Of a stretch of 64,000 nucleotides of DNA, positions 14,601 through 31,891 are shown piece after piece; positions within the stretch are counted from its first letter, which is position 1, and each line of letters starts with the position of its first letter. The stretch is taken from the IMG/VR virus record IMGVR_UViG_3300036770_004917, positions 22,044 through 86,043 of that record, one strand, 5' to 3'. Made by a program: the position numbers and the translations under genes. Origin of the DNA: a virus. Below the pieces are notes generated by a model. That model was not told where the DNA came from and did no database searches. It saw only the letters and a program-made list of their open reading frames with translations.

Positions 14601-17600
14601 TCCCGCAACTTTGAAATTTCTGCCGCTTTTGCTGCGCGCGTCTTGTCGGCCGTGACCATTCTTCCAATTCGACCACTGTTATCGACTGGCTGAAGGAGTG
14701 AGCCAGCGTCAGTATTTGTTGACTCGGTGCCAAAGAATGAACTTCCCGATTCCCGGAATGCGGCGCCAACCGACGAAGAGCGGGTCGTCTGGAGTAATCT
14801 TGCTGACGCGTCGCCACTTGCTCCGCGGGTTGTGCGCTGCGGGATTTCGGTTTTGCCTATCTCGGTATCCAGTAAGCGCTTTAGGGCACGCTTTTCGGAA
14901 TCCGCCAAAGAACCGCGCTCTGCTTCCACTGAATCAATTGAATCAGCAAGGTCGCCAAGAACTTCAGACTTTGTCTTTTGGCGACTTGGCATCAAAACAA
15001 CAGTTCCATCAGTATCAACCTTCATGACCTCAAGGGTTCCTGGTGGAATGAGGATTCCGTCAGTGTCTCCATCATGGCCATTTTTGGTATGCATTGCACG
15101 CGTTCCCGCAGGCATCGTAACCATAACTCGCTTAGCAGTTGTTGGGTCTGCAAACTTGAGACCATCAGCAGACTGTCCGTCTATCAGTAGACCGCGAATT
15201 GGTCCACTGTGGTCAATTTTTGCACCAGGGGTTAAGTCTCCATCAAGTTCCATTGCGGCAACAAATGACATATCAGTATCTGTTGTTGAGAGTTCCAGTA
15301 TGTCCAGAGTTGGTATGACCGTATCGCGAAGTTGATTTTCTAACAGTTCGTCCTGGCTCTTTGGGTCTGGTGTGCTCATTGTCCCAGCACCATCGCGCAA
15401 ACGCTGGCGCGCCCTTGCTGATGTATCTATGGCGCTACGGAGGCTCTCAGTATCGCCGCTTACCGCATCACTTACAGTTAGCCACGCAGGCCTCATTTCC
15501 ACTGGCTCATCAGACTCAATGACGTCTTTTTGCTCAGCGTTTAGTTTTTCTATTATTTCATCAATCTTGCGGCGACCAACAAGCGCAGGGTCGGACCTAA
15601 GTGTTGCGCTTTCAATTTCTTCTTGTGTTGGCTTGTAGTTGGGATTGAGTTTCCGCTTTTCCTTCGATGTCATGCCAGGAGTGTCACGAATACTTCCTGG
15701 CTCATAGGGGCGTGAGGTGGCATCAAATCCATCCCTACCACCTACGGCATCCCCCGCATGGTTGGCTATTTCTCGTGACCAGTGGGCCAACTCGTCGTCA
15801 TCAACTTCAACTATGTCGTCATAGCCGCGCGACTTCCTCTTATTGATGGCACTATTGCGAAGTCCCTTTTGCTTTGGCCGCAATGCTGAATCAACGCGAC
15901 GCATATATTTTCCAGGTTGTGGATTAATGCCGCGTGCTTTGTACTTCTCAACCTCCTCGTCGCTAAGTTTGGACTTCCTAGTGTTCACGTCAAGAATCTG
16001 ACGCATGCCCTTAATAGCGAGCCACATGCGGGCCTGCTCATCCGCCGTTAGCGGTTCAGTTTTGGATTTTTCAATAAGTTTCCTGTATTCGCTTTCAAGT
16101 TTTTCGTAACGAGCATCCATTTGCTCTGGAGTCATTTTCCAGTAGGCGTCTTTGGCTTGCCTTATTTCACCAAGTGGGTCATTGGGGTCTGGCCCACCCT
16201 CTTCTGGGCCTAGGCCAAATGCAACATCTACGAAACGACTGATTTCATCGGGGTTTTGTTCAATGGGGAGGTTATGAATACTCTCTGGTTGCCACTGAGT
16301 TTCATCATCAAAGTACATATGGCCCGCAAGGTCCATCCAGCGAAGGTCAACCTGTCTTGGTTTTGCCGCGCCTGCTTCTGGCGCCTCGCCACCCTGTACT
16401 CCATCTCCATAGTTGTTATTAATAACAATATTTATTGGAGCATGAATGTTTACATTTATAACCGTTCCACCATTTCCTGGCGGAGCGGTTGGTGGCCCGG
16501 TATTTGTTGGTACGTCCGGCACTGGCGGTGAGTCTGGCGTAGGGGGAACTAAATCAACTTCTGGAGGAACATCATATGGGATATCTCTGACTTTTTTGGT
16601 ATTGATATTTTCGGGCAAAAACCACGCAATAGAATCATCAACCTCGGGTCCGCCCAGGATTCCAAGTTCACGCTGAGCAAAAACTTCAGCCGTTCCTTCA
16701 ACCAACGCCCGTTGCAATGCCTGGCTAACATCCCCGCCTTCCCGGGCTGCTTTCTCCGCATCAGCCAGTTCACTCTGATATCGTTTTCCGGCGAAAATGT
16801 TAACTAATGATTTCTCAAATCGATGCGCTCCACCTGGTGGGAATTGATACCTATTATCTCCCCTAAACATTAGACTAGAAACAGCCTCGGCCCACTGCTT
16901 ATTTGTCCAGGTTGATGGTGGTTCAATAAAATCAACCAATCCATTTGGCGTATCTATAGTAAACTTTCCGTTTTTTTCGTATATGTCAATGATATTTTGC
17001 TGCACGGCATGGTATTGCATAACATGACCAAACTCGTGAAAAGCAACATGTCGTGCTTTTCCGCGCACTGGGTCAAGCCCAAGTGCTGCTTGTAGGCGTG
17101 CTGCACTGGTGTCATTTGCGTATCCATCAGCGCCAACGATTTCGGCATATAGCATTGCGTCGCTAATATCCTCTAAAGCACTTAGTAATAGTGCTCGTTT
17201 TTGTGCTTCACTGGCAGCGCCTGGAGCATCTATAAATATTGAACCATCATCAGTAATTTTGAACGTGTCTTCATCTACCGCTGCCGCATGCAATGCCATT
17301 CCAAGAGCATTAAATGACATCGGTACTTTGATATCGCCATACTCATCATATTGCGCCACAGTTGAGCCCTCGACTCCAAGGAATTCCTCGTTTGGCGTAA
17401 GGTCGTATGGCATCAAGGCGCGAAGTTCGCCAACTCTTTCTGTTGCATCTGGATATTTGTCTTGCAGGTAGACGTACGATTTGAGAAATTCACGCTGTGC
17501 GGCGTGATGTCTTTCGCGAATTGCCTGAACATACTTTTGGGCTACTTCACGCTCTTTTGGGTCACTGCTTGTCAGGAATGGCTTTACTTCATCCGGGATA

Positions 17601-18790
17601 AATTTAGCGATGGCCCTATCCATCATTTCGTTATAGCGCTTAGTATTTGCTGCTATTGATTCTGGTGAGAAATCGCCTTCCCATATGAATTCTTCACCGC
17701 CAAGACCAGCATCTGCAAATATTCCTCCACCAAGCGTTGGGTCATTTTGTCTTTGTTCTGCCGCAGATTTGCCAAATAGAAACTTCCTAAACGCCTCATC
17801 GGCTTCGGCCTCCCTGCCAGGACCATACTTTTCACGGAATAGTCCGTGAAGCCCCTGAATGAGGTCAGCATTGGCGGAAGACGATGCTTCATCGGCGGTG
17901 ACTCCGAATCTCTCAAGCAATCCATCAACTCTGGCATTAAAATCGGCATCGGCGAGTTGAGTTGCTTCGCGTGGCTGAACTGCGTTTGCCCTGGTTGCCT
18001 TGAAACGATTTTGTTGCTCACGCTCATATGGTGTGAGGCTTCTCCCGTATTGCCTGACTTCTGCTCCGCGCTCAGCCATTGCATCTAGGCGTCTACCAAC
18101 ACGGAAAGCGGCCCTAACCACGCTCCCCAGTCCAATGGTATTGCAGTTGGACATATCAATGTCAGTGAATTGGTTGGCGTTCGGCGTCCCAGGTGGGCAA
18201 CGCAGTTTTCCATTAGCATCAATGATGCCGCCCGCCGCCTGGAATGCCTGAGTTGATACGCGCCCCATTGTTGAGCCAATACTGCGGCCCAATTCCTTAA
18301 TCCGAACTTCGTTTTCTATTTCGGTAGTCAACTCGCCATCGGAGTCTCTTTTATATTTACGAAGGAATACGCCAGGACGACTTGAAATTTCTTCTTGTGA
18401 TTTTTTGATTGCGGCGAGTGCTTCTTCTCGCGTTTTGGGACCAGGTGGGTCAATCCAGCCAAACTTTGCGCCCTTTGGAGAAGTCAACTCAGCAAACGTG
18501 GTTGTCAACTTAAGGATTTGACCGGGCTTTCTTTTGGCCTTGGGGTCCCAGTCAAGTTTTAGTGTTGGCTCATCATTATTTTCGCCAGTCTCGTCACGTT
18601 CAGCACCAGAACCTTCGGCTTTTGCACCTTCTGGTAGGGCCTTAACTGCAATATTGGCATTGAGGGTCGGACGAGCAGCGGAATGCATCCGTAGTTCTTT
18701 GAAATAAAGACAGACCTCATTGACATTGCGGTCGCTGAGACGACCAACCTTGCGGCTTATGTGCCTATGAGGGATTCCTTTACCCGCCAT
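8684..18790 (-). CDS. Giant polyvalent-type protein (~3370 aa): zincin, degenerate VIP2-like ART, DUF3626-like domain, KTSC-like domain, two ParB/Srx-like repeats
   Basis: Likely start is ATG 18790 after GGAG (the track starts at TTG 18802). Motifs: RCPPGTPNANQFTD; HEFGH...EGTAE (~16680-17050); LTPGAKIDHSG...VTMPAG...ILIPPG (~15000-15290); FGYL...VELIM...RTAYTKGD...EAVIGGGI...DIEAI (~13780-14460); KITYDDSTNELIVTW (~13020-13070); 2x DGYVVDGHHRWA. Confidence 0.8.
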   Translation of the reverse strand: MAGKGIPHRHISRKVGRLSDRNVNEVCLYFKELRMHSAARPTLNANIAVKALPEGAKAEGSGAERDETGENNDEPTLKLDWDPKAKRKPGQILKLTTTFAELTSPKGAKFGWIDPPGPKTREEALAAIKKSQEEISSRPGVFLRKYKRDSDGELTTEIENEVRIKELGRSIGSTMGRVSTQAFQAAGGIIDANGKLRCPPGTPNANQFTDIDMSNCNTIGLGSVVRAAFRVGRRLDAMAERGAEVRQYGRSLTPYEREQQNRFKATRANAVQPREATQLADADFNARVDGLLERFGVTADEASSSANADLIQGLHGLFREKYGPGREAEADEAFRKFLFGKSAAEQRQNDPTLGGGIFADAGLGGEEFIWEGDFSPESIAANTKRYNEMMDRAIAKFIPDEVKPFLTSSDPKEREVAQKYVQAIRERHHAAQREFLKSYVYLQDKYPDATERVGELRALMPYDLTPNEEFLGVEGSTVAQYDEYGDIKVPMSFNALGMALHAAAVDEDTFKITDDGSIFIDAPGAASEAQKRALLLSALEDISDAMLYAEIVGADGYANDTSAARLQAALGLDPVRGKARHVAFHEFGHVMQYHAVQQNIIDIYEKNGKFTIDTPNGLVDFIEPPSTWTNKQWAEAVSSLMFRGDNRYQFPPGGAHRFEKSLVNIFAGKRYQSELADAEKAAREGGDVSQALQRALVEGTAEVFAQRELGILGGPEVDDSIAWFLPENINTKKVRDIPYDVPPEVDLVPPTPDSPPVPDVPTNTGPPTAPPGNGGTVINVNIHAPINIVINNNYGDGVQGGEAPEAGAAKPRQVDLRWMDLAGHMYFDDETQWQPESIHNLPIEQNPDEISRFVDVAFGLGPEEGGPDPNDPLGEIRQAKDAYWKMTPEQMDARYEKLESEYRKLIEKSKTEPLTADEQARMWLAIKGMRQILDVNTRKSKLSDEEVEKYKARGINPQPGKYMRRVDSALRPKQKGLRNSAINKRKSRGYDDIVEVDDDELAHWSREIANHAGDAVGGRDGFDATSRPYEPGSIRDTPGMTSKEKRKLNPNYKPTQEEIESATLRSDPALVGRRKIDEIIEKLNAEQKDVIESDEPVEMRPAWLTVSDAVSGDTESLRSAIDTSARARQRLRDGAGTMSTPDPKSQDELLENQLRDTVIPTLDILELSTTDTDMSFVAAMELDGDLTPGAKIDHSGPIRGLLIDGQSADGLKFADPTTAKRVMVTMPAGTRAMHTKNGHDGDTDGILIPPGTLEVMKVDTDGTVVLMPSRQKTKSEVLGDLADSIDSVEAERGSLADSEKRALKRLLDTEIGKTEIPQRTTRGASGDASARLLQTTRSSSVGAAFRESGSSFFGTESTNTDAGSLLQPVDNSGRIGRMVTADKTRAAKAAEISKLRDELEKVRDGGVENEDFWNLFNEISDQTKQLIFSSTADELTKTVEEAVFKYHEAFDDRPRVAITPEQLGGLLSDGVLGNIFDNKPGSLAASLQKSFESDNGLSDSTPDNLRSQFGYLVHAMSQKEIQDYLDSLPPDGMARSARFFSEGPEFSQHAEFKSGGKTVELIMVPETARRTAYTKGDIMDGARQATPMLSTNRSEVLAAHVSGPDSGNSEIDNMRETIGILDSVASGTYAAFGTPSTSTRSSRSTSSGPSAEAVIGGGIRTSDIEAIKVDSLELNNYKIDADEIGGRDRLKNVLRQSFIDNDLDEILDALLTGDMDKVPKEAQHLIAPFNRMRLVLAARKAQADHKSRGGEPPLIFGNPDGFDISDIDSFTNLSHIDQNSSPEEKLFQRLRYDAHGASTRRFSARNEPNPRDVSGKSIYTPESLKRRNDYYTNGRLTTLSSDSDVFPTVSTTDTPDTGSGQQIDVKPVNPKTVDLINREVEKGRTTSASGLSRVGKGQRTQIDVRRSKLIEKITYDDSTNELIVTWKGNEAGRGTERYTGFSPELVRVLEETFKDDSDGSSNPILISEAVNHIASVARTSERMPDANAHARELSDAEKARLRSEGLRSARTTTRSTTASDIESRVSRSVSDPDSISTRSASSPREVRGTSGNTSTTPPAKRKIADIYKDVSGLGKPENNGGLHQLDDDELFEKFGVERSGNMALIDGQEVFVANDLETAAALIAAGYHVELGPDAPSPTLLVQASAKLQKELDEFLKSENRDLTAVIDTCRLYAGGTNLWCEGGLGTLRADMPQIAGRMRSEDTAAARAAKAGVVKVDWKAGRRDADGNLTKLTPEEKTRFDELKAKHAKLNKDGTVSPSTFEDGEMEEFYSMVDWNDTEANLTEEFKQYVKRLSAKVNPDKNPDEVIYDQDGIDPESLAVSQGQIQMSKTGGMVTSMKNHDHSFKAYMADIHPEIEYGSDEYYDMRDRWLYGKPKPDGSAFAVPLIDGEGRKLNSDGDPIGEGGTQGIISQPWFTNGSIISTSDGYVVDGHHRWASFIAYNHGQDERAKLKLKSVVIDAPIQDALAIGKAYQEHWGIKAAVLGKERMFERVDGAGSMDMDAKKSHIDALFEEDADGIPLAQRMSRDIYKDLYEQKEGFGYVQKISGQDRGATPRSTRSSRTAREAVGENRREATKARVTEKAGTSPQAEAVPTTAAQKRFDEIQRIEQNKRGALHEMGEDELKTLGLSRVEGKTGITDGQPVYKAETPESAVALMALGYNVELGDNAKAKQLKKGIKNFQKEIDSYLKLRNDLSEEEKAMYKIDACRMYVPNSNIFCGKNIGTKRMRMPQISGRLKGDDTVGARAAKAGLVKTSWEAREDLTPEQRERFDELKKRHPNPKGEYPEGQGPLTEDERKEFYDLVNWKDTEVDFVPNFMDHLRRKAGREDIVTTKNGVSPDDYTASQSEIQAEKVSGMLNGIDESYSAFLKWSESKGIKRGSKEFFKLRQEWLDGKYDGQVPVLDENGNQVMDKGKPKFAEAWWAKGAIITSNDGYVVDGHHRWAAVHMFNQDLPEGEKLTINTQEIDVGIFDALNLAKSYQNQVGIKEAKLGLEDDYVKDDSVPDMSKDEFDDFVRKTDDDLDANYQEVRDSGAYIPDGAYARTRGGRRTSGFITRERPRTTQDIFGVARSEVASTRSSREPRAFSDDYPAMAELGIDPRPSAGPDGEIEDDGNRALAEGILRGATKAQQKEMEQIASDAVASVRRQQDEIRSQIINELGSEEALDALLTFDMPTPRAWSDMSDEKRASIREMLDSVSRIEEQTFSETIDRLVAMSDERRRGRNANIAAAKRIARPDTRELTSTRSSRQTQRTGTRFTSDIARGIGKQIDGEQLTRDLSGAFKKNGTAGVLSQLRKTLRNDSSGWVIDYALSEGYISKSQAAFLRKLAKRLFGKPSTGRGAKSAYTEDGLIFADLLSPPMTAHKETPWL

Positions 18791-18813
18791 TCCGGGCTCC
18801 AATCCCGACTGTA

Positions 18814-20537: not shown

Positions 20538-23500
20538 CTAATCATTCAGGGCAATCTCTACCTCGTCGCCGTTCTCATTTATCTTAGTAATTGTTCGTGA
20601 GTGAACTGGTTCTGCTGTTCTGTTGATGAATGTGGCCATGGCAGCCTTCGCCATTAGTTCTGCCATTTCGCCAAATAGGGCCATCCTTGCTTCGCCACCC
20701 CGCTCCACCTGTCTGTCTAGCGCAACATAAAGTGCTTCAATAATTTCGTCAATTTCGTCTTGCGTTAAATACAGGGCACCAGCATTGGTTCTCCTGTCGC
20801 TCAATTTCCCGGATTTCTGACGGGTCAATGTCTTCTTCAATAAGTTCAGGGCGGCAGAATGACGCGGGTCATCGGCCTTGCTTATCTCCCTATCAAGCGA
20901 ATTAAGGAGTTCGTTGAATTTCGTACGCTCTGCACGTATTTCTGCCCTGCCTTCCTTGACCGAAGACCGAGTGGAGCGAGTACTTTGCATAACCTCATTT
21001 TTGCGTGCAGCAAAATATGCATCAATGGCACGACCACGGATGCGTGGTACATATCTGGTTTTTGGAACAATGTCCATTTCGGGCATTGAGCGGACAAGGG
21101 GGGCCCCACGCCCTGGTGCCTTGTCAATGAATTCATCAGTCATTAATTCATTGCGCAATTTATTTAGATAATCACGAGTTCCAGATGCCCTATCAATACT
21201 ATTTTGTACATACTTTTTGCCAATTACGGAAGCACGCGGAGCAAATCCATTGGGTTTTCCATCCATCGCGTCAACGACAAAATCACTAGTCAGGTAATCA
21301 TCCAGAATGTCAATTGCGTCATCAATATTTCCGATACCAAAATCAATCCCAGCACCATCAGCATCCGCGAATAATTTCTTGACATCGTCCCATACCTGAG
21401 AGTGCCGATTGTCCTGATATCTGGTTGAATAAACCGAATCAAGTTCACTCTGGTACTCCCCTATGATGCTTCCAATTCCTGAAGCAATTCGCTGCCTGCG
21501 AACCCTGGCAGCCGTTGGGTTGGACGGGGTGCTGACGGGAGAATCCTCACCTCTAGTGGGCGATGGTGCTGTCGCTTTTGGTGGTGCAGTAATGTCTACT
21601 GGCAATTGGATTCCACTGCGAGTCGGGCGGACGGGAGACTGAACTCTTGATGACCGGACAGGAACAGGAGGCAAGTCCAGGTCTTCGTCCTCAAGACCTA
21701 GTTCTCGCCGCTTATCAATGGCATCAAGAAGTTTTTGACTTGAGGCCATAATGTCATCCCATATCAAGTTAAGGTCGTTGTCGGGTATTTCGCTAACTCC
21801 AGTCCTGCGCTTATCTGCTTCAGGCCTTAAGCGGCGCACTACGTCTGCTGCCTGCATGTGGTTTAGGTTGCGGAAATCATTGTAGAAGACACTTCTTGAC
21901 TCATTATCTAGAATATCTCTTGTTTTCATGCCAAGTGATTCCCAAGATTTTGCAAAATCCGGAGTTGCGGCAGTGCCAGAACCGTTGCCGTAAATAACAC
22001 TCTCGTAGTTATCACGACGCTTGAGGTTGTCTTGGACCATATTGAGTGCATCCATAACTTCGCGAGCCTGCTTGATGGCATCGCTTTGTCTCAGGCCCTT
22101 ATCCCCACCACCCTGCACCATGTTCTCTTTAATCCATGACAATTTGTCCAACGGTGCCATATCCGCATAGTCCGACGGTGCCATTTCTGCAAATGGTGTT
22201 CCTGCTTCGTCACCACCCTTTCTTGGCGCCAAAGACCCAACAGCAGAACGTGTTGGTGTGGAGAATTCCCTAATAGCATCCAACGACTTCCATGTTGCTA
22301 TTGTTTTAAATTTCTCGTTAGCAAGTGATTGCGCAACTTTCATATTTGAACCTTGCGCCCAATCAAGAAGTTTTTGGCGACGCTCTTTATTTAGCGAGTA
22401 GGGTGCCCCTGAGTTGAACAGTGAGTTCACGTCAGTTCCGTTTGTCTGAGGGAATTCGGTTGCATCAAATTTTAATTTTGGTGATGATGCTGCATGGTCA
22501 AGCAATGCAGCACTTGCCGTGCCATCACTCATATTCGATGAACGAAGAGCAGTTATACCATCACGAATAAACTCATACTCTGCTGGCGACATACTGAATG
22601 CAGTCTTGAGTCCACCACTCTGTCCACCAGCAATAAGTTTGTCATAGACATCAATCGCCGAAGTGATTTCGCGATTATTGGCAAAACGCTTTCTCAATTC
22701 TGCCAGTTCATCACGAACTATTCCAGCATCATTGTTGTCCAAAATAATGCTAATGGTATTTGATGGCGTTTTTGGAAGAGGACGATACATGGGTGCTATT
22801 CCATCTGGCAAAAGGCGCGCACTCCTAGAATCCTCTAGTGCATCAACGATGTTAATCGCGGCAGCAGCCTCTTGATTCGCAAATAGTTTCTTAGCAATTG
22901 AGTGAGCCCTGATTGGGTCAACGGGAGCAACCTCGTCCCTGGATGATGCCGAATAAGCACCTGCAAGATTCTTTATTAGAGATGTTTCCGTAGAACTTAG
23001 TTTCACTCTCCGGGCATCTCGTTCAAGGAGTTGGGCAAGCCCTGGGACAAGACCGCGACGGCTGCCATCTGGCGATACCGTATAACTGGAATCTTTATCA
23101 AGTTGATTTAGCGATGCGTCAACTGTCTTTCTGCTTTTAAGGAAAGTATCAATAACCTCATCATTCATTCCGCCATAGCGATAAATGCCGCCATTCCTGC
23201 CGATAATGAGTTCATTGCGGTTCCCATCGTATGCGACGAATGAAACATTGGAATTAGCGAACTTGCTTGAGCGACCAGGGAATAATTGTTCCGAATTTCG
23301 CAAATCAGTACCCATTTTGACTGTTGCCTTACTCGTTATCCGAGGGGATGCAACACTCCGAGTTGATGGGGATATCGCCAATACGGCTTGTTCGTCTAGT
23401 TCTGTAGCGGTTGTATTAATGACGGCTTGTTTTGCATCGGCCAGTTTTCTCTTGCGACGAACGGAGAGGATTGCATTTTCGAGTATGTCTGATGCAGATT

Positions 23501-26500
23501 TATTGATGAACGACCTATCTTCATCATCAATGTCTCTTCCATTGATGATTGAGTCAACTTCAAGCATGTCAATGTAGGAGCCAACCTGGTCGTTGCTTGC
23601 TAGTTGATTGAGTTCTTCTGCTAGTTCTGACGCTGAGGTGCGATTCATTCCTACTGGGCGAGACGTGCCACGTGGCCCGGTGTCAAATAATGACCGCTCC
23701 AATGCTGAGTCATATTCAAGAAGTGACAAGACATCCGCCCAGTCCTCTTCGGTAAGTCCAAACCTTTCGGCTGCATCGTTATAGCCTGATGCTTGCTTTT
23801 TCGCTTTTTTGTATGATGCTGAAGTGAGTGCTGCCTGACGCTCTTCGCGAACAAGGTGCTGGGCTGCAGCAAATATTTCATTTACTTCGCGTTCAATAGC
23901 CAATATTGACTCATCAAGAAATGCTGAACGATTTTCCATTTCGGCATTCGGCCATTCATAATTAACGGCATCAAATTGTGCATCTAGTTCTTTCAACTCA
24001 TCTCGTGAGTCATTCAGTTCATCTAGCAATCCACGAACTCTTCCGACTATTGCGTCAGTTGAACCTGCGCGGAAATCCTCTACCGTATCTCTCCATACAG
24101 CGGGTATCCGAGTACGTCCGCTACGGGTACTTGCTGGACGATTGGCATTAAGAAGTTGTTGGTCATCGGGGATAACTGCCGATATGGCATTACCACTCAC
24201 TAGGTCACGAAGGACCAATTTATTAACACCATCTCGCATTCGCCCAACCGAAGCAACCGAATATCTAGCGTCACCCTGTGATGCTAGGGATTGCATGAAG
24301 TTATCGGGGAGAATGTCACCAGGTTTGACATCGCTGCCAAATGATATATAAGACATTGAGCCATCACTATTTTGGGATGACAATGGACGACCGAGCGGCC
24401 TGAGTTCGCCACCGGCTCTCATTGCCGAAAGACCATTTATGTATTGTTCTTTCGCATTGTTGCCTGGGGCGATAGTGCTTCTCGTAATATTGAGCCATTC
24501 CCGAGAAGATGGACCTTCTTTGCGTTTTCCGGGAATCTTGGTTGCCCGGCGCTTTTGCTCCTGTTCTTGCCTGACTTGTTCTGGCGTCAATTTTTTCATG
24601 TCACCAGTAACTTTTTTGTCCCCAGTGACATTCCACTTTTTGCGATTCTTGCCGCGCTTGGAGCGTGTCGATGGGATGTTACTACCTTGTGCTGTATCGT
24701 CGATTTCGTCGCCCATTTGTGTTGCGATACTTTGTCCACGGACACTGCGCGTACCACCATATTCATACCCTTCGCCACGTGGTGTTGGTGCATCTGTTTC
24801 ACCCTCCACTCCACGGATAATGTCACCAATCGCGCTTTTTTCTGAATTTCCGAGAACACCAATGGATAGAGTTTTATCCTTCTTCGGGATTTCCTGAACT
24901 CCGGTGCGTCTAGCAAAATCAATCTCGTCTTTATCACTTATGGAATAAGCAAGAATGTCGGCGCCAGTTTCAGCATAGATACGCTCAATTGCATCTATTT
25001 GTTCTTCGGTAAACCGAACATCGCCAGCCTCGAAGCCAATATATGGCCTTATCTGCTCAAGTACTTTTTCGCCTCTTGAATTTATTTTTTCAGTAATATT
25101 CCCACGACTCATGCGGAATCGGACCACCCCATCGTCGTAGGCGTTAAGGTAGTCGTGTTCGTCTCCGTGCTCACCAATAACTGGATAAAGCGTCCCATCT
25201 GGATACAGCCATGCTCCAAAAAAGTCAGAATTAATAAACTCATCCACGGTCATGAACTTCATCTGTAGCGGTCGTTTTTCCGAACCCAAACGAGCAGAGT
25301 CGTCAGCCTTTGCCCTCATCCGTAGTTCATCACCAATTGCTGCCAATATGTTTGCCGCCCCCTCATCTGGCTTTCCTCTCATATCAACAATCGCTCGTAT
25401 GTCCTGCTGAAGGTCTCTCAGCATTTCTGGCGTCATTGATGGCGAACGCAGTGGATAATCGGCACGACCACTCAGGAATCTAATTTCCCTCAACGTAGCC
25501 CTATTCAACTTCCCGTTGTCTAGTGACTTTGTTATATCGTCAAGGAGTTTGACTAGGGCTGCATTATTAGCGAGGCGTTTTTCTTGCATTTGTTTTGTAA
25601 TTTGCTCACGCCTCTGCTGCATGTCTGCCTTCATGACGGCCAGGGCCCTTTGTTCTCTTGGGGAGATATATGAGCGAGTAGAGCGGGTAGAGGATGACGC
25701 AAGCCCATCCGTGCCAGTCGTTCTGCCACGCATTCTCTTGAACAGTCGGCCGATTCCGCCCGGTTCGCGCTCTGTCAGGGAATGGTCTCCCGAATTGGCA
25801 AAAATCTCTGGAGCAACGAGTCCGAAAGACCGAAGAAGTTTGCCATTTTTATTCATATCCATTATTTCTGACGCACTAAACCAACCGATTTCAGTGTTTT
25901 CCCCATCTCCGATTTTCACATCAGATAGGTCTCGTCTGCCAACTTCGTAGACATGGGTGTCGTATGCCCAATCCGGAGCACGTTGGTCACGGTAGGAATA
26001 AACCGGCAATAGCCCCTCCAAGTCACCGCCAACTTCCTCCCTAAATTCCGTCACCGCTGTCTCCATCGGAATTTCAGAACTGTCCTTATCCTTATGGACA
26101 CCACCAGGGAATGACCATTGTCCGCCCCCAGAACTCATCCATGGGGCACGTCTGGCTAGTAGGTATTCATAATCTCCGGATAGCCCCCTACGGCGTCGCA
26201 CCAAGGCGCCAGATGCGCCATACCGTCCATTGAATTTTTGGCCAGTAATGGAGAAGTAGTACCCCTCCCCAGTCTCCTGATTTGAGCCGCCACCTCTTGG
26301 TGCAAAGAATGGATATGCGGGTGGCTTTAGTTTGCCTGCACGAAGAAGGGAAACTTCCCTGCTGGATATTCTGTCCGCATAATAGACACCATCATCACTC
26401 TGCAGAATTTTGTATTTTTCCCACGGGCTTGCCGTCTTTTCTTCTTCTATTTCCGCAAGACCCTCGGCAATATCTTCATCTCGCGATAATTCACCTCGAC

Positions 26501-29500
26501 GGCGAGCAACTCTATTGCGGCGGGGGGATTGCTCATCGTTTGCTCGCATCGTTCGCGAGCGAGTACTAGGCATTCCCGTTGATGTCCGCGCATCCCTGTC
26601 CGAACTTAGTCTCGCCCATTCTGGGATGAAATCTGGTTTTTCTACGAAGTCTTCCGTTCCAAGGAATTCCTTTATTTCTTTGGCAGAAGGGGTCCTGGAT
26701 GTTAGGTCAAACTCACCGATGGGGAACAATGCCGGAATGGTATCGCCGCCATAATCACGGCGTTTGCGGCTGACTGATACTGCTGGAGCATCAGAAAGTT
26801 GCACTATGTTAGCAATGGCGTCAATTTGTTTGTCATTTAATCCTATTGCATCGATATTTACGTTTCCGGGGGGACCGAAAAGTAGGCGAACGAGGCCATC
26901 ATCGAATGCATCGCTGTATTCATACTCGGCATCATGTGACATAACCGGATAGATGCGGCCATCAGGGTAAATCCAGGCGCCATGCCAATGCGAGTTAGCA
27001 AAATCTTTTGCAGTAATAAAGTCGTTTGCAAGTACTCTTTCTTCGCCACCAAGTCTTTTTGGCCTATCTCCTATCGCGCGTTCAATCTGGCGAACAATTC
27101 TTTCTTTTTCTGGAGAGGGCTTAACTAGCGCATTCGTAAGAGAAAGAAGTGCTTTATTGGTTCTATCTTCGACAAAACCATAAAGTGGGCGAACGTTTTG
27201 CCTCATTGATGAATTGACGGCTTTGAGCACGTACTCCACGTACCCCCGTTCGCCATCTACCGTCCCTATGGGGCCAATTATTTCTCGCAATTCTTCTGTG
27301 CTCAGGTTTTCCACTGCGTCGCGAATCTGTTGCACTGCATTACGCAATTCGGCATTACTCTCCAGCATGGAGCGAGAATGTTCGTCCCCCAATTTTGCGA
27401 CTTTTGTCATTCTTTCCCGCGAACGTTCCCTATTTTCTTGGACTTTCCGCGTCTTTTCGTCTTCTGCGCTAGTTGTCGTGCTGCGCGTTGACAGGCTGTA
27501 CCTGGCGCTACGAGTACTTCCAGAATTTTCTTTGTTCCACTCGTTGGCAACTCTCTCAAAATATCCAGTTGCTGCATTCAGTGCGTCTGTGTCTGATTCT
27601 GTTCCGGTCCGTGCACTGCTCGCGAATTCAATAGATGCAATAGGTTCAACTTTTTCAAAAACCTGATATTCGCGTTCACTGCGGGGGAAACCAATTGGCC
27701 CTGCGTACATGGTGGCTTGCGACTTAGGAACCGCCGCCAAATAGACTCGGCTTGCTCCTTCATCATTTCTGTCACGAGCGTAACCGATACCAATTCTTAT
27801 ATCTGCTGGATAGTAAGAAAGATGTTCGCGGCCAGATTTTGCGTAATCATGGAATTGTTTATTATCGGCAAGCCATTGTTCTCTGGCTGCAATCGTCTTT
27901 TTTAATCGTTCAATCTGTTCAGTGTTTACACCAACTTTTTCAAATTCTTCAAGTTCGCTACGAGTTATTTCAAGGTCTTTTTCCGCCTGCTCGTAAGCGC
28001 GAATTAGCAGATTGCGACCAGCCTCATTTGAGCGCTTAGAATTTTTGGCACCACCGATAATTTCGGATGCCTCGCCAAAACCGGCAGTGAATTGGGGGTC
28101 CAGTACGCCGCCATCAAGTACGGGGACACCAGTATGCGTCAGGAATAAGACATCTTCGTTTTCAAAATCACCATACTGCTGACCGGGGTTCTCTGACTCG
28201 ACAGCACCAGTGATGAGGGCGCGACCTCTTTCGGCCAAGCGAACGAATTCTGGGTGGTCACGGAGGTTGTCCATGTCCACGTTTCGTGGAGTTTCTCCGC
28301 GCTCAAACTGCTCAATAACCCTAAGACGCTCGACAGCATCTTCTCGTAGTTCTATTAAATTATTTCTATAACGATTAAAGGCCTCTCGTTGCTCTTCTGG
28401 CGTTTGAACCTCACTAAGTTCTTCTTTGGTGAGATTGGTCATGCTTCCACGACTGCGCCTACCACTAACGCGTGGTTCCGCTACATCAAAATCTTTCCCT
28501 AGCCAATCGCCTGTTTCTTCCCAATGGGCAATTGCTTTTTCAATGGAATCTAGTTCTTTCCCCAATTGGGAGTAATAGCCCTCAAGCGCCGATTTCCCAA
28601 AAATCCTGCGATATTCAGGGTCTTCCTGGCGTAGTGATGTTCGTTTCCGTGTTGACCGGAGGCCATCAATGGATACGCCATTGTCGTTCCTCTTGGTAAC
28701 CCTGGGAGCATCAACTGAATCAAGCAACTCATTTCTAATTAGAATTCCGTCAAGAGAATCCCCCGCCAGGCGGGCAAGCATGTCATCTGATGCTTCGGTC
28801 AATGGGGTCTGGCGCACAGAACGACTTGACCTACTGGAGCGAGTACTTGGTGGGTCAAGTTTGTCAAGCAACTCGTCTATAGGGCCGTCGTAGTCTCTGA
28901 TTGTTTCTTCAAAGCGTCCCCTTGCGCGTTCTGGTTTGTCTGGCGAGGCAACAATACCAAGCCAACGTGCAGCAATCTCCATTAGGTTTGACCGAATAAA
29001 GACTTCCCTATCTTCATCGGTGAGGCTCTCTAGGCCCGGTAATTCTCGTAATTTATTCCAGAAATCCTTATCGCGAGCAAGCGAAATCAGGGCAAGGATG
29101 TTTCCCCACTCACTATGTCTGTCAAATGTATTTCCTAGAGCGAAATGACCCATGAGGTCATGGAGCATTGCAAGTGGTGAGACTAAGTAATTGCTTAGTT
29201 CGCCATGGACCTCCGGCACTGCATGTGGGTCTGACATGAGTTGTAGATATCCATGGATAAAAAAGTCATTATCTATCAGGCGCTTGGCAACTTTTGCACG
29301 TTCATTGCGCGGCACTTTTTCCAATTCCGGAATAATATAATGCTTAAGAAGCATCGCCGCTATCTCGTTAGTGCGTACACTTAATGCCACATTTACGGAT
29401 GGCAACTGTTCTTTTAGATGTTCTCTGTATTTTTTGTTAAAAAATTCATGGAAGGGGAGTTCTTCTCCATCATCGAAGGGGCGCGCAAGCCGAGGTTTTT

Positions 29501-30506
29501 TCCTACCTTCAGGGTCTTTGATAAAAATGGAATCAAAGAATTTATGCCAGCGTCCATACTTCTTGCGTGGCTCTACCTCGTCAAAAATTGACAGAATCGT
29601 CTCGCTGTCTGGAATCTCCGTATTGTGGTAATCCCTATTGTCAGGGAGCAAACGGCGCAAGACCGTATTCGTTGGCATTCTCAGCGAGATTGTTCCATCG
29701 TCGTGTACTCGGAGTTCTGACCCCTCGATGATGTCATCAATGGTCATGTCTATATCTGGGTGCGACCCAAAACCATCAATGAGTTTTTCCCGCCTAAGAA
29801 TGCCGGAACGTTCACGACGACCCATTGATTGCCAGTCGTCTCGCATGGCTTGGAGATTCATTATCAAGTTGGAAACTTGATTTTTAATGCGTTTCTTTTG
29901 GTCATCCGTCCAATCGCCGGACTCCATGAGGCGCTTCTCTAATCCATTACGAATATCCACCCAGAACTGACTGTCGCTAATCGCCTCGTCGCCGTCTGTT
30001 CCTTTTTTGGGCCTCTGTGTCGGCTCAAGGATGTCTCCTAGGGGGATTCGTTCTCTGATGCTTCGTGTACTTCGTACTACGCGACCGACATTCGGACCCG
30101 GGCGCACGGACGTATCAATTGCGCCATCTACTTCGGCGTTGCTTGCAATACCAACGCTTGAGTCTTTATCAATTCTTGAAACAATGCTCTGCAGTTTTTC
30201 CTGGCTAAATGAGATATCGGTATTGCCAGCACGCCGCTTGCGCTCAATCTCTTCAGAGTCGCCCTGGGTAAGTTTTGCAACAGACTTTGCAATACTGCGT
30301 GGAACGATGAATCTAGGAATAATGGGTCTTTCAAGGGGTAATCCCTCAAAAACAATCCCATCGTTATCGGCGTCTACTCGTCCTGTGACGTCAACGAACG
30401 ACATCCCAGGCGGCGCAGCACGAAGGCCACCACCAATACGCTGACCGAGTTTTCCGCCCAGTGCTTTAGATTCGGCGTCTAGCCCTAACTCAGCAAAGCC
30501 GGGCAC
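20538..30506 (-). CDS. Giant polyvalent-type protein (3322 aa), probably made as a -1 frameshift fusion to the prohead protease; HDxxGH peptidase-like, ART-like, NUDIX, duplicated GAWxYPDG and KTSC-like domains
   Basis: HDLMGHF...FDRHSE (~29110-29165); LTHTG...HLSYY...VYLAAVP...EREYQV (~27660-28145); NUDIX box WSFPGG...ETAVTEFREEVG (~26025-26120); GAWIYPDG and GAWLYPDG; SNVSFVAYDGNRNELII...GGIYRY (~23175-23255). The GTG start has no good RBS. Confidence 0.8.
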   Translation of the reverse strand: MPGFAELGLDAESKALGGKLGQRIGGGLRAAPPGMSFVDVTGRVDADNDGIVFEGLPLERPIIPRFIVPRSIAKSVAKLTQGDSEEIERKRRAGNTDISFSQEKLQSIVSRIDKDSSVGIASNAEVDGAIDTSVRPGPNVGRVVRSTRSIRERIPLGDILEPTQRPKKGTDGDEAISDSQFWVDIRNGLEKRLMESGDWTDDQKKRIKNQVSNLIMNLQAMRDDWQSMGRRERSGILRREKLIDGFGSHPDIDMTIDDIIEGSELRVHDDGTISLRMPTNTVLRRLLPDNRDYHNTEIPDSETILSIFDEVEPRKKYGRWHKFFDSIFIKDPEGRKKPRLARPFDDGEELPFHEFFNKKYREHLKEQLPSVNVALSVRTNEIAAMLLKHYIIPELEKVPRNERAKVAKRLIDNDFFIHGYLQLMSDPHAVPEVHGELSNYLVSPLAMLHDLMGHFALGNTFDRHSEWGNILALISLARDKDFWNKLRELPGLESLTDEDREVFIRSNLMEIAARWLGIVASPDKPERARGRFEETIRDYDGPIDELLDKLDPPSTRSSRSSRSVRQTPLTEASDDMLARLAGDSLDGILIRNELLDSVDAPRVTKRNDNGVSIDGLRSTRKRTSLRQEDPEYRRIFGKSALEGYYSQLGKELDSIEKAIAHWEETGDWLGKDFDVAEPRVSGRRSRGSMTNLTKEELSEVQTPEEQREAFNRYRNNLIELREDAVERLRVIEQFERGETPRNVDMDNLRDHPEFVRLAERGRALITGAVESENPGQQYGDFENEDVLFLTHTGVPVLDGGVLDPQFTAGFGEASEIIGGAKNSKRSNEAGRNLLIRAYEQAEKDLEITRSELEEFEKVGVNTEQIERLKKTIAAREQWLADNKQFHDYAKSGREHLSYYPADIRIGIGYARDRNDEGASRVYLAAVPKSQATMYAGPIGFPRSEREYQVFEKVEPIASIEFASSARTGTESDTDALNAATGYFERVANEWNKENSGSTRSARYSLSTRSTTTSAEDEKTRKVQENRERSRERMTKVAKLGDEHSRSMLESNAELRNAVQQIRDAVENLSTEELREIIGPIGTVDGERGYVEYVLKAVNSSMRQNVRPLYGFVEDRTNKALLSLTNALVKPSPEKERIVRQIERAIGDRPKRLGGEERVLANDFITAKDFANSHWHGAWIYPDGRIYPVMSHDAEYEYSDAFDDGLVRLLFGPPGNVNIDAIGLNDKQIDAIANIVQLSDAPAVSVSRKRRDYGGDTIPALFPIGEFDLTSRTPSAKEIKEFLGTEDFVEKPDFIPEWARLSSDRDARTSTGMPSTRSRTMRANDEQSPRRNRVARRRGELSRDEDIAEGLAEIEEEKTASPWEKYKILQSDDGVYYADRISSREVSLLRAGKLKPPAYPFFAPRGGGSNQETGEGYYFSITGQKFNGRYGASGALVRRRRGLSGDYEYLLARRAPWMSSGGGQWSFPGGVHKDKDSSEIPMETAVTEFREEVGGDLEGLLPVYSYRDQRAPDWAYDTHVYEVGRRDLSDVKIGDGENTEIGWFSASEIMDMNKNGKLLRSFGLVAPEIFANSGDHSLTEREPGGIGRLFKRMRGRTTGTDGLASSSTRSTRSYISPREQRALAVMKADMQQRREQITKQMQEKRLANNAALVKLLDDITKSLDNGKLNRATLREIRFLSGRADYPLRSPSMTPEMLRDLQQDIRAIVDMRGKPDEGAANILAAIGDELRMRAKADDSARLGSEKRPLQMKFMTVDEFINSDFFGAWLYPDGTLYPVIGEHGDEHDYLNAYDDGVVRFRMSRGNITEKINSRGEKVLEQIRPYIGFEAGDVRFTEEQIDAIERIYAETGADILAYSISDKDEIDFARRTGVQEIPKKDKTLSIGVLGNSEKSAIGDIIRGVEGETDAPTPRGEGYEYGGTRSVRGQSIATQMGDEIDDTAQGSNIPSTRSKRGKNRKKWNVTGDKKVTGDMKKLTPEQVRQEQEQKRRATKIPGKRKEGPSSREWLNITRSTIAPGNNAKEQYINGLSAMRAGGELRPLGRPLSSQNSDGSMSYISFGSDVKPGDILPDNFMQSLASQGDARYSVASVGRMRDGVNKLVLRDLVSGNAISAVIPDDQQLLNANRPASTRSGRTRIPAVWRDTVEDFRAGSTDAIVGRVRGLLDELNDSRDELKELDAQFDAVNYEWPNAEMENRSAFLDESILAIEREVNEIFAAAQHLVREERQAALTSASYKKAKKQASGYNDAAERFGLTEEDWADVLSLLEYDSALERSLFDTGPRGTSRPVGMNRTSASELAEELNQLASNDQVGSYIDMLEVDSIINGRDIDDEDRSFINKSASDILENAILSVRRKRKLADAKQAVINTTATELDEQAVLAISPSTRSVASPRITSKATVKMGTDLRNSEQLFPGRSSKFANSNVSFVAYDGNRNELIIGRNGGIYRYGGMNDEVIDTFLKSRKTVDASLNQLDKDSSYTVSPDGSRRGLVPGLAQLLERDARRVKLSSTETSLIKNLAGAYSASSRDEVAPVDPIRAHSIAKKLFANQEAAAAINIVDALEDSRSARLLPDGIAPMYRPLPKTPSNTISIILDNNDAGIVRDELAELRKRFANNREITSAIDVYDKLIAGGQSGGLKTAFSMSPAEYEFIRDGITALRSSNMSDGTASAALLDHAASSPKLKFDATEFPQTNGTDVNSLFNSGAPYSLNKERRQKLLDWAQGSNMKVAQSLANEKFKTIATWKSLDAIREFSTPTRSAVGSLAPRKGGDEAGTPFAEMAPSDYADMAPLDKLSWIKENMVQGGGDKGLRQSDAIKQAREVMDALNMVQDNLKRRDNYESVIYGNGSGTAATPDFAKSWESLGMKTRDILDNESRSVFYNDFRNLNHMQAADVVRRLRPEADKRRTGVSEIPDNDLNLIWDDIMASSQKLLDAIDKRRELGLEDEDLDLPPVPVRSSRVQSPVRPTRSGIQLPVDITAPPKATAPSPTRGEDSPVSTPSNPTAARVRRQRIASGIGSIIGEYQSELDSVYSTRYQDNRHSQVWDDVKKLFADADGAGIDFGIGNIDDAIDILDDYLTSDFVVDAMDGKPNGFAPRASVIGKKYVQNSIDRASGTRDYLNKLRNELMTDEFIDKAPGRGAPLVRSMPEMDIVPKTRYVPRIRGRAIDAYFAARKNEVMQSTRSTRSSVKEGRAEIRAERTKFNELLNSLDREISKADDPRHSAALNLLKKTLTRQKSGKLSDRRTNAGALYLTQDEIDEIIEALYVALDRQVERGGEARMALFGEMAELMAKAAMATFINRTAEPVHSRTITKINENGDEVEIALND

Positions 30507-30518
30507 TATTATTTTTTT
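30458..30518 (-). promoter_or_regulatory. Putative programmed -1 ribosomal frameshift signal (A AAA AAA plus downstream stem-loop)
   Basis: Minus strand reads GGT TCA AAA AAA TAA TAG; the -1 frame reads AAA AAA ATA ATA GTG CCC into the 3322-aa ORF. A GCCCGGCTT...GAGTTAGGGC hairpin can start 7 nt after the heptamer. Confidence 0.7.
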
Positions 30519-31891
30519 GAACCACCAGCCTGGCCATAGAGAACATCGTCAATTGTGAGGGCGATATTCTCTAGTGCGGTGATTGCTTCCTGTGTAAGGC
30601 CGTTGGAGATATGAATTCCCTGGTGGTCAACCTCAGCGTCGAGACGGTGATAATCAATTACTGGGTCAAGCAAACTCTTTACATGGAATGCTTCTTCCGG
30701 CGTGCATAGGACGGTAAAAACCTCTTCTTCTACTGGGTCCTGTTTTGAGCCGGTTAAACCCTGAAGTAGGTCAATTGCGTATTGCAGTTTCTCTGCGGGC
30801 AGTGCCGAACCGCTTGTTGCCACATCAATGATAATGTCTGCCGCTTCATCCATTGCCTCATCTAGAGACTTGCCGCCAGAAGACAGAAACATCATTCCTG
30901 TCGGCATGCCAGAACCTGGCTTGACACTCATTGGCATTGATGGCATTTGTGATGGAACGACAACTGGTGCTGTTGGCATTGTGCTCTGCTGATTACGCAT
31001 GCCAATTTTTTCTGGCTTACCAAACATATATTCGCCTGTCTCTTCCTCGCGATGGTAAGACAGGCGATAGGTGACTGAGTTGCCATTTCCGGCATCACGA
31101 TTGAAAGTAACTGAATTCTCCGTTGCGTGAATGATGTCCAGGGGCAATCGCGACCTGCTCATTAGTTCCATGGCAAGTGCATTGCGTGCCTCATCGGGGA
31201 GTACTCGCGCTTCACCTTCACCAAAGATGTCCTCGCGCTCCTGTTGGCGCTGTGGCGCTATTGCGGATACCTGACGCACGACTTGGGGTAGAACTGGCCG
31301 ACCTACAATTGCGGCCCCACTAGGGATTCCGGGCATATGATGCATGCGAGGCATTGGATTCCCGCACTTTTCTGCTTCGTCGCTCTTGACGGAGATGGTG
31401 CCAGTAAGTTGGTTAGCGCCATGAAGAACTGGACTAACCTCATACAATTCAACTTCATGAAGAATATTGGCCTGTGTACCGGGGTCAAACGTAGCATTGA
31501 GCGTCTTGTACCCAATACTCCACTCTTGCTCCTGGCCAAAGAATGCAACACTAGCAAAGGCTTCGCGACCCTTTTCGGTGGCCAGGTTGAATTGAACCTT
31601 CGCAAAAAGTCCACCCACGCCAGCCTGCTTCATCTTCATTGGTAAACGAGGGTCGCTTGCAGGAACCTCGTAAATTTCAAGAACCTTGCCGATGGGGTCA
31701 TTCCAACTATGCCCCCAGACCACCCGAGGCTTGCGGCGCTTGAGGCTTTCAGTAAAGGCGCCAGTAGCGACAACATCGCCGACCGAGTCCTTGTTGCCAA
31801 CTGCGGCCACAAAGCACTCAACAATGCCTTGTGCCTCGTCAATGTTTATCTGGCCATTCAGTGCCTTGAAACTAATTTGGTCTGTAGACAT
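30509..31891 (-). CDS. HK97-family prohead (maturation) protease with long C-terminal extension
   Basis: VGNKDSVGDVV..GAF..SL, WGHSWNDPIG (His), EWSIGY (Ser) and EVELYEVSPVLHGAN motifs; immediately downstream of the portal. Confidence 0.92.
   Translation of the reverse strand: MSTDQISFKALNGQINIDEAQGIVECFVAAVGNKDSVGDVVATGAFTESLKRRKPRVVWGHSWNDPIGKVLEIYEVPASDPRLPMKMKQAGVGGLFAKVQFNLATEKGREAFASVAFFGQEQEWSIGYKTLNATFDPGTQANILHEVELYEVSPVLHGANQLTGTISVKSDEAEKCGNPMPRMHHMPGIPSGAAIVGRPVLPQVVRQVSAIAPQRQQEREDIFGEGEARVLPDEARNALAMELMSRSRLPLDIIHATENSVTFNRDAGNGNSVTYRLSYHREEETGEYMFGKPEKIGMRNQQSTMPTAPVVVPSQMPSMPMSVKPGSGMPTGMMFLSSGGKSLDEAMDEAADIIIDVATSGSALPAEKLQYAIDLLQGLTGSKQDPVEEEVFTVLCTPEEAFHVKSLLDPVIDYHRLDAEVDHQGIHISNGLTQEAITALENIALTIDDVLYGQAGGSKK

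Follow-up and report, generated by a model that had tools for sequence, protein, structure and literature searches.

Giant genes among the head genes

We analysed a window of 64,000 nucleotides (positions 22,044 to 86,043 of the IMG/VR virus record IMGVR_UViG_3300036770_004917), in which a giant open reading frame (ORF), here called G4, encodes a protein that carries the short motif (S)TRS many times over. The window is part of an 86-kb record of this phage, G000, with a CheckV completeness of 57%; positions below are those of the window unless prefixed with G000:C1. G000 contains four giant ORFs rich in STRS, G1 to G4, encoding proteins of 2763, 3123, 3372 and 3322 residues with 9, 9, 5 and 12 copies of STRS, respectively. 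On the minus strand the gene order is portal, protease, G4, a 522-residue ORF, G3, further genes, G2, G1 and the major capsid protein (MCP). Because a tail sheath gene is present, the phage is a myovirus.

32000-34051, minus strand: portal gene; G4 lies directly downstream of the portal and protease ORFs.
30509..31891, minus strand: prohead protease ORF, 460 residues, with an S78 domain at residues 8-174, a C-terminal extension and no TRS.
20538..30506, minus strand: G4, 3322 residues, 17 TRS of which 12 are STRS.
8684..18802, minus strand: G3, 3372 residues, 7 TRS (5 STRS).
1..2424, minus strand: N-terminal 808 residues of G2 (3123 residues and 9 STRS in full), with its first STRS at 364-375.
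G000:C1:6451-14742, outside the window: G1.
G000:C1:4496-5803, outside the window: MCP gene.
54707-56227: tail sheath gene, the basis for the myovirus assignment.

The giants are encoded among head-morphogenesis genes, as the polyvalent-protein class requires, and several biochemically unrelated domains are combined within one polypeptide, as in polyvalent proteins. The system belongs to the class of polyvalent proteins of Iyer et al. 2017 (PMC5512222), which in the available part of that article are likewise giant multi-domain proteins encoded near head genes, and which are predicted there to be injected and to be processed by embedded zincin-like metallopeptidases. A NUDIX domain (residues 1445-1553) was the sole Pfam domain recognised in G4, and a PHROGs search of G4 returned 0 families. 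G1 and G2 carry pentapeptide-repeat blocks and a KTSC domain, and a Zeta-toxin-like domain was also matched in the sister giants. Residues 764-892 of G1 form a Zeta-toxin/AAA_33-like kinase domain. Separate units of G4 match different sets of database proteins. Additionally, a shared N-terminal segment occurs as one copy per giant and was found in G1, G2, G4 and giants of the related records G002 and G003.

Among cultured phages the closest relatives are actinophages, whose portals are 43% identical. At the protein level the best portal match is to Gordonia phage GMA6, whose portal-to-capsid region holds cargo-like genes, but as separate genes. A DNA-level comparison of the phage collection in 'distant' mode gave no match.

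The (S)TRS motif and its place in interdomain linkers

The original prediction had listed 16 copies of TRS in G4. All 16 of its coordinates are the low ends of real TRS codon triplets, and the true total is 17. The residue preceding TRS is S in 12 of the 17 copies, the rest being ITRS (twice), GTRS (once) and PTRS (twice). The sites of G4, all on the minus strand, are given below together with their counterparts in related loci (L numbers), to which we return later.

30060..30071: STRS, residues 146-149, the first site; homologous to SMRS in L010 and to GMRS at residue 589 of the fused ORF of L016.
28836..28847: STRS, residues 554-557 (in STRSSRSSRS); homologous to SMRSTRS in L010.
27957..27968: ITRS, residues 847-850, the copy absent from the earlier list; acidic context, helical-looking by eye.
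27480..27518: two STRS 9 residues apart, residues 997-1000 and 1006-1009, in a coil linker.
26556..26567: STRS, residues 1314-1317, in the linker preceding the NUDIX-containing unit.
25671..25691: STRSTRS, residues 1606-1612, in the linker following the NUDIX unit.
24744..24755: GTRS, residues 1918-1921, in a long coil; GNRS, GTRS or STRS in relatives.
24660..24671: STRS, residues 1946-1949; SMRS in the same column in L091 (the contig of L010).
24477..24488: ITRS, residues 2007-2010, within a predicted helix and a conserved block.
24120..24131: STRS, residues 2126-2129; SMRS in the same column in L091.
23355..23366: STRS, residues 2381-2384, the left bracket of a unit of ~370 residues.
22245..22256: PTRS, residues 2751-2754, the right bracket of the unit begun by STRS 2382.
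21615..21626: PTRS, residues 2961-2964.
20964..20984: STRSTRS, residues 3175-3181.

The doubled forms that had been noted are real (STRSSRSSRS at residues 554-563, STRSTRS at 1606-1612 and 3175-3181), as is the variant GLRSTR, which lies at 28647-28664. In G3 the TRS copies lie at window positions 14777, 13868, 12746, 12674, 11114, 9560 and 9056.

We found that the motif is far more frequent than composition allows. The expectation for TRS in G4 is 1.21 copies, in line with the copy or so predicted from typical residue frequencies, against 17 observed. Whole-protein shuffles of G4 (n=20,000) gave a mean of 1.21 and a maximum of 7. Shuffles within 20-residue blocks (n=2000), in which local composition is kept, gave on average 1.67 TRS (maximum 9) and 0.21 STRS (maximum 3), versus 12 STRS observed. 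The four giants together (12,580 residues) hold 35 STRS versus 0.40 expected. In G000, the 60 ORFs shorter than 1000 residues (13,103 residues) hold 0 STRS, so that the enrichment holds against both shuffled sequence and these smaller ORFs. The motif belongs to the genome as a whole rather than to one protein. Its consensus across the giants is S-T-R-S-[SAVT]-[RS]-S. Position 3 is R in 35 of 35 STRS, with a count of 0 for STKS, and the alternatives to T at position 2 are L (6), S (4) and A (3).

A motif with no function of its own could arise as a by-product of linkers rich in S, T and R, or by duplication or recombination of a short DNA linker. The linkers are indeed S/R/T-rich, and RSS, SSR and SRS are likewise somewhat enriched in G4. 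However, ten non-overlapping alternative orders of S, T, R and S occur only 0-1 times each in the four giants, against 35 STRS (the overlapping TRSS occurs 14 times), and block shuffles reach at most 3 STRS against 12. A composition artefact is ruled out by the whole-protein shuffles, the block shuffles and these permutation counts. The 35 STRS copies are encoded by 30 distinct 12-mers, which excludes a repeat or recombination linker at the DNA level and, as had been proposed from the differing codons, indicates that selection acts at the protein level. Together with the concerted replacement of the motif across unrelated giants in other lineages, described below, these counts make an origin without function extremely improbable.

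Several observations support a position of the motif in interdomain linkers. We built an AlphaFold2 (AF2) model of residues 960-2140 of G4 from a 6-row alignment of G4 and five relatives, the small number being due to a second viral scan with this segment that gave just 5 known contigs; its mean predicted local distance difference test (pLDDT) score is 53. Coil runs of 15 residues or more account for 19.6% of this model and contain 8 of the 9 TRS copies, or 6 of 7 independent sites (binomial p=3e-4). The structural overlay that had been suggested thus places the motif mostly in long coil, on a low-confidence model. The exception is ITRS at residue 2008, which lies inside a predicted helix.

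Conservation in the five close relatives follows the same pattern. For 7 of the 9 copies the motif columns are 0.69-1.0 identical and the 15-residue flanks are indel-rich and 0.34-0.56 identical, the overall mean identity of the alignment being 0.65; the surroundings of the remaining two copies (ITRS at residue 2008 and STRS at residue 2127) are well conserved. The flanks of the 35 STRS are also less hydrophobic than random positions (0.221 vs 0.270, with 0 of 20,000 random sets as low). Segments between motifs in G4 are domain-sized, mostly 119-408 residues. An exhaustive HMMER search with residues 960-2140 gave 224 hits, and most of those to the NUDIX-containing unit both begin and end between the motifs at residues 1315 and 1607, the exceptions being a few alignments that cross a motif by 10-45 residues.

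The domains said to be bracketed by the motif were recovered in part. NUDIX (residues 1445-1553) falls between the sites at 1315 and 1607, HDLMGH at residue 449 between those at 147 and 555, and the two GAWxYPDG units (residues 1176 and 1764) each between motifs; the ART-like and KTSC domains were not recovered in G4 with Pfam at E<=1. About one chance copy of TRS is expected in G4. From its place in the model, ITRS at residue 2008 is probably a chance copy and no true site, and ITRS at residue 848 is probably another, judged by eye from its helical-looking acidic context.

A basic segment, RGKNRKKWNVTGDKKVTGDMKKLTPEQVRQEQEQKRRATKIPGKRKEGPSSREW, stands right after an STRS site (24500-24660; residues ~1950-2003 of G4). 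It is near-invariant among relatives that are only 35-60% identical elsewhere. Further copies are found in the L013 giant, close to its N-terminus, and in the L016 giant at residues 1896-1978; the segment therefore acts like a small mobile module.

Dialects of the motif in related phages

A scan for relatives of the portal gave 208 matches, from which 80 loci were kept. The giant ORF downstream of the portal carries an over-represented 4-6-mer that differs between lineages, as follows.

Portal at least 88% identical: STRS, 7-11 copies in longer ORFs (2-4 in two short fragments).
L010, portal 76%: SMRS, 6 copies, and STRS, 3 copies.
L016-L018, portal 68%: GMRS(R), 10-14 copies.
L013, portal 67%: GSKSTT, 6 copies.
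L020: [FL]SSGR, 9 copies.
Ten loci with portal 62-65%: [KR]LSSG[RK], 5-16 copies.
L056 and L074: (R)GLAS, 4 copies.

The motif classes hardly overlap within any locus. In a FastTree portal tree each class is confined to one clade, with 4 changes among 5 states over 34 labelled rows, which is the minimum; 45 of the 79 rows carry none of the five tested classes, mostly with too little sequence downstream of the portal, and L054 and L075 were omitted as portal fragments of <600 residues. The same holds for whole records. GMRS occurs 15, 5, 15 and 3 times across the four giants of G003 and 0 times in its 38 small ORFs; LSSG occurs 3 and 13 times in the giants of G004 and once in its small ORFs; and SKST occurs 3, 1, 1, 3, 7 and 1 times in the six ORFs of at least 1000 residues of G002 (the last being its tape-measure homologue) and once in its small ORFs. 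Motifs of other lineages reach 0-2 copies per whole record. G006, of the L037 lineage that was first scored as having none, has [ST]LRSSG (LRSS 16 times and RSSG 14 times in 7475 residues), and G007 has GLAS 7 times. Further dialects, ISGR(M), GLRS and GGMRS, adjoin relatives of the MCP. When 59 distinct related ORFs of 1500 residues or more were searched de novo, 26 had a top 4-mer whose count surpassed the highest value from 100 shuffles, and in 23 the top 4-mer was present 5 or more times.

By sequence comparison, homologous sites and units carry the local dialect. The first site reads RVVRSTRSIRERIPLGD in G4, RGRVSMRSIRERIPLSD in L010 and SSDGMRSRGEMRPIGSD in L016. Similarly, the homologue in L016 of the ~370-residue unit that STRS 2382 and PTRS 2752 bracket in G4 is bracketed by GMRS at 2832 and 3216. 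Since mostly dissimilar giants swap the motif in concert between lineages, these patterns require a trans-acting, lineage-specific reader, either phage- or host-encoded. STRS, SMRS, GMRS, GSKS, KLSS and GLAS can be written, in an alignment by eye, as small-[T/M/L/S]-[R/K/S/A]-Ser, and FSSG fits the last three positions. The LSSG and GLAS dialects have no basic residue, and for this reason a DNA-binding tag, which the original prediction had offered as one option, is unlikely.

The motif is also found outside the giants, in the probable tape-measure protein.

57485..61894, plus strand: probable tape-measure protein, 1469 residues, 3' of the sheath and of tube-sized and chaperone-sized ORFs.
57611-57622, plus strand: STRS, residues 43-46.
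59354-59365, plus strand: STRS at residue 624.

Two STRS are present where about 0.06 are expected. The first copy has a well-conserved, probably helical context, YNAISTRSLEATNVKW, and is present in 5 of 5 relatives covering the region; the tape-measure homologue of G002 lacks the motif there. This copy may be no true site. The second lies in a variable Ala/Gly-rich stretch that follows the conserved N-terminal part. In a homologue 78% identical, SMRS stands 10 residues from it, the G002 homologue has GSKSTT about 37 columns away, and the G006 homologue (40% identical over residues 20-525) has LRSSG at residue 667. The tape-measure variable region thus bears the local motif in four dialects: STRS in G000, SMRS in L202, GSKSTT in G002 and LRSSG in G006. 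In other relatives the place of residue 624 reads ATRS (L201) or the stretch is missing (L206).

The clade-specific dialects and the motif in the tape measure bear on two further explanations. A host protease might cut the motif after injection, with the dialects reflecting different hosts. Cargo and tape measure both reach the host cell, which would explain the motif in both, and the dialects are indeed clade-specific. We know of no host protease with such a 4-6-residue specificity, however, and close phages (portal 76%) already differ, STRS vs SMRS, while sister clades use wholly different motifs (GMRS, GSKSTT). Host cleavage would demand frequent host shifts with matching changes of protease, and we consider it very unlikely.

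Alternatively, the motif might be a linker tag, either for modification of Ser (phosphorylation, glycosylation or ADP-ribosylation) or for binding the lumen of the tail tube or the portal during ejection. Six of seven dialects can be aligned by eye on Ser at the fourth position (STRS, SMRS, GMRS, GSKS, KLSS, GLAS), and passage through the tail is common to cargo and tape measure, the two classes of protein that bear the motif. Against such a tag, neither a protein kinase nor a glycosyltransferase was detected in those parts that were searched, and exact placement at domain boundaries with tandem doubling is typical of polyprotein cleavage sites. Furthermore, if each giant has one targeting tag, release of its domains becomes a functional need. 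A tag therefore appears improbable to us, if less so than a host protease.

Other features of the window and of database giants touch on the dialects. The N-terminal half of the 522-residue ORF between G4 and G3 (18814-20382, minus strand) is very acidic and Met-rich. That half contains KGGMRMRMPM twice and KGMRW once, which resembles the GMRS dialect of the sister lineage, and at its C-terminus the ORF has a weak match (E 0.0085) to the C-terminal part of phrog_80, head maturation protease. Four other database giants (P0024, P0026, P0033 and P0034; 2700-4400 residues) share the NUDIX-like unit and have APE/TPE-rich linkers (APE 20 times, TPE 19 times, APEA 9 times), resembling the A-x-E motif of prohead proteases of the T4/phiKZ type. 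A linker cleavage code may therefore be general among polyvalent proteins. Elsewhere in the window, a block of plus-strand genes includes a class II (B12-dependent) ribonucleotide reductase (44571-46496, plus strand; phrog_367, E 9e-138).

Candidate readers of the motif

Altogether, our best explanation, which we put forward tentatively, is that (S)TRS is the form taken in this lineage by a short linker code delimiting the cargo domains of virion-carried polyproteins, and that the same code marks one linker of the tape measure. The motif is probably a cleavage site of some kind. A protease is the simplest reader because the sites bracket domains, are often doubled, and occur in giants with one copy each of the N-terminal segment. 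Cleavage itself, the identity of the enzyme and the timing of its action are what we infer here.

The nearest candidate in the genome is the S78 (HK97 gp4-type) prohead protease, which might cut the cargo polyproteins in the prohead before DNA is packaged. Its ORF matches PF04586 (E=9.4e-14) and phrog_80 (E=5.4e-29), with S78 in the first 175 residues; a PDB sequence search with it gave 0 hits at E<=1. The S78 domain is encoded directly upstream of G4 and the two frames meet at a run of seven A.

30512..30518, minus strand: A7 run (A_AAA_AAA) at the end of the protease ORF, with G4 in the -1 frame.

The protease ORF ends GGT TCA AAA AAA TAA, and the -1 frame of G4 is open 33 nt upstream. The A7 run is kept in L038, L004 and L010, and in L010 the head of the giant's frame has no ATG, GTG or TTG at the matching position. 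Protease and giant form a single continuous ORF in the GMRS and LSSG lineages, colinear through '...GGSKK...', and the fused forms have their first motif at residues 589-663, equivalent to 460+147 in G000. G4 is probably expressed by extending the protease ORF through a -1 shift in frame, and the A_AAA_AAA site is likely to act by gag-pol-like frameshifting or by transcriptional slippage.

Cleavage by this protease would have precedents. T4 gp21 cuts at L/I-x-E and phiKZ gp175 at A-x-E, and in HK97 the gp4 protease (MEROPS S78) matures gp5 by cutting between Lys and Ser, which resembles the R-S and K-S of several dialects. The likeness of T4 gp21, phiKZ gp175 and SPN3US gp245 to the present case is that a short recurring motif marks cleavage in head-packaged proteins that are later ejected. 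SPN3US gp245 cuts after A-X-E with Ser preferred at P1', at 14 sites in 9 proteins, according to the available part of the report (PMC10052503). HK97 offers the same protease family (PF04586), a junction like the predicted MCP junction SFK/S of our phages (the slash marking the predicted cut), and a basic residue followed by Ser as in several dialects.

There are also differences. In T4, phiKZ and SPN3US the sites mostly trim N-terminal propeptides of separate proteins and the shell shares the motif, whereas G000 has 5-12 STRS sites per chain in polyproteins of ~3000 residues that are putatively split into domain units, a shell without the motif, a protease of the S78 family, and a motif that changes between related lineages. 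No dialect core contains Glu, so none ends in Glu as L/I-x-E and A-x-E do. HK97 has no cargo polyproteins; in our phages the Arg of STRS is never Lys and the MCP junction does not shift with dialect. The assemblin-like peptidases of polyvalent proteins lie only at C-termini in the available part of Iyer et al. (PMC5512222), whereas here an S78 protease is joined N-terminally, by fusion or frameshift.

The conservation of the protease also speaks against it as the reader. Its S78 domain is 74-100% identical across dialects, even between dialects as unlike as STRS and LSSG (78-80%), with 85% between STRS and GMRS and 89% between STRS and GSKSTT, and it is 74% identical to that of the motif-less outgroup. 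Three blocks, WGH[SN]WNDPIGKV, EQEWSIGYKT and SPVLHGANQLT, are invariant, and such blocks surround the presumed catalytic His and Ser. The 20-25% of S78 positions that differ could still shift specificity. Residue 62 of the protease (31700-31720), which follows the presumed catalytic His, is Ser in the four sequences of the S[TM]RS clade and Asn in the other twelve.

The expected substrates of the protease likewise largely do not follow the dialects. The MCP, portal and protease ORFs of G000 hold 0 TRS, while the precedents share one motif between shell and cargo. The MCP is 74-89% identical across dialects and its probable junction, SFK/S[VI]GDEF, is kept: it reads SFK/S in three of the four dialects compared and EIK/S in the LSSG record, with no dialect motif. 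Over 80 MCP loci the junction [FAI]K/S[IVL]G is mostly conserved, and P1 is K, G, A, Y, Q, T, M, N or R with no relation to dialect. As the original prediction held, the motif is distinct from the capsid Lys-Ser junction: K never stands at position 3 in the STRS lineage, whose MCP junction uses K, and SFK/S comes without STRS. A search for a second, Lys-based code with the expression [FIYLAG]K[SA][LIV]G found no pattern outside the MCP. The string QL[ST]SRE stands just upstream of the MCP junction in all 6 loci with an adjacent giant of the LSSG/FSSG type, and it also occurs in loci of the LSSG clade without a clear motif, as a clade-wide insert. The MCP loci with QL[ST]SRE are L086, L127, L144, L151, L164, L180 and L185, and an LSS string at the propeptide boundary is seen only in the LSSG clade. 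Finally, four dialects have their motif in the tape measure, which, being a tail protein, a prohead protease would not be expected to encounter. A complex prediction of the S78 domain with residues 535-580 of G4, run without controls, scored 0.00 and carries no weight either way. Weighing its position beside G4 against these patterns, we regard cleavage by the prohead protease as unlikely.

A second phage peptidase, most likely one of the zincin-like modules with an HExxH motif, is a possible reader on sequence grounds. The evidence leans slightly away from the prohead protease and toward these fast-evolving modules, because S78 is conserved across dialects and because the motif is absent from its expected substrates but present in the tape measure. 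HExxH occurs in G1 as HELAH at residue 533 and HEFGH at residue 2424, and in G3 as HEFGH at residue 589.

16523..17362, minus strand: zincin-like HEFGH module of G3, residues 481-760, in the motif-free N-terminal 1340 residues; candidate reader.

The N-terminal HExxH modules lie in the motif-free first 669 residues of G1 and first 1340 of G3. Those at residue 533 of G1 and 589 of G3 have positional homologues in G002, G003 and G004 that are just 21-47% identical. Across 13 module sequences H105, H109, E110, H113, E222 and E226 are invariant. The language-model features of the module were closest to the clusters 'zincin-like metallopeptidase' and Wss1-like (0.91), a weak lead.

Under this explanation, a phage-encoded peptidase would recognise the motif and cut the chains into domain-sized products. 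The enzyme would be a second, fast-evolving peptidase that travels with the cargo and is other than the conserved prohead protease, the best candidates being the zincin-like modules, with HExxH, that G1 and G3 carry in their motif-free N-terminal parts. It would act after encapsidation, perhaps only post-ejection in the next host, when both cargo and tape measure could be reached.

A number of points weigh against a linker code read by such modules. To our knowledge, wherever the processing of phage head cargo has been characterised, the prohead protease is the enzyme responsible, and here the S78 protease is fused or frameshift-coupled to G4 itself. STR-S, GMR-S and GSK-S are each a basic residue followed by Ser, like the K-S of the MCP. 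The candidate modules are themselves weakly supported: Pfam matches on sub-segments of the G3 module are sub-threshold (E 0.03-0.14), its AF2 model has a pLDDT of 60, a Foldseek search against the PDB gave no match at E<=0.001, and with VIA wide the best Z was 4.8, the catalytic centre of anthrax lethal factor ranking 22 with a Z of 3.9, within noise. A profile of the G3 type gave weak partial matches (E about 1e-4) in G006, G007 and G010 and found nothing in G008 and G009, all five being incomplete records. The model behind the linker test is of low confidence (pLDDT 53, 6 rows). In addition, 33 of the 59 related ORFs of at least 1500 residues have no 4-mer above shuffles, the outgroup record G008 has no motif in 3563 residues, and even the nearest cultured phage, with its 43%-identical portal, is a distant comparison.

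A broader picture, which we hold to be doubtful, is that uncultured myoviruses, probably freshwater actinophages, deliver arrays of anti-host effectors as polyproteins of ~3000 residues with a programmable 'zip code' of 4-6 residues per lineage (STRS, SMRS, GMRS, GSKSTT, LSSG, SLRSSG, GLAS, ISGRM), which a co-evolving virion peptidase would read only post-ejection, freeing the effectors and cutting the tape measure. If so, an arms race would drive the turnover of dialects, in which phages might be escaping host inhibitors or decoys, or avoiding cross-processing when they co-infect.

In the polyproteins of eukaryotic RNA viruses, units are separated at a short repeated sequence (the 3C/3CL and NS3 sites) that co-evolves with the viral protease and varies between lineages. 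Those viruses belong to another realm and genome type, with no homology to the present system, where a tailed dsDNA phage would deliver the products as effectors from its virion. We found in the published literature, supplementary tables aside, no repeated linker code that segments polyvalent proteins, and neither a motif of this kind in a tape measure nor its turnover between related phages. In the available part of Iyer et al. (PMC5512222) the word 'linker' has 0 occurrences and no recurring cleavage motif or lineage-specific code is described.

Polyvalent giants are mostly unannotated, as illustrated by the one Pfam domain in the 3322 residues of G4. If the motif is a cleavage code, they could be divided into functional units from sequence alone, and at least six dialects in one phage family would provide a natural set of orthogonal pairs of protease and site. 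The question raised is whether the conserved prohead protease or the zincin modules predicted by Iyer et al. read the code. In either case, a cleavage code would mean that tailed phages use a polyprotein strategy for their injected effectors, at a scale so far tied to RNA viruses.

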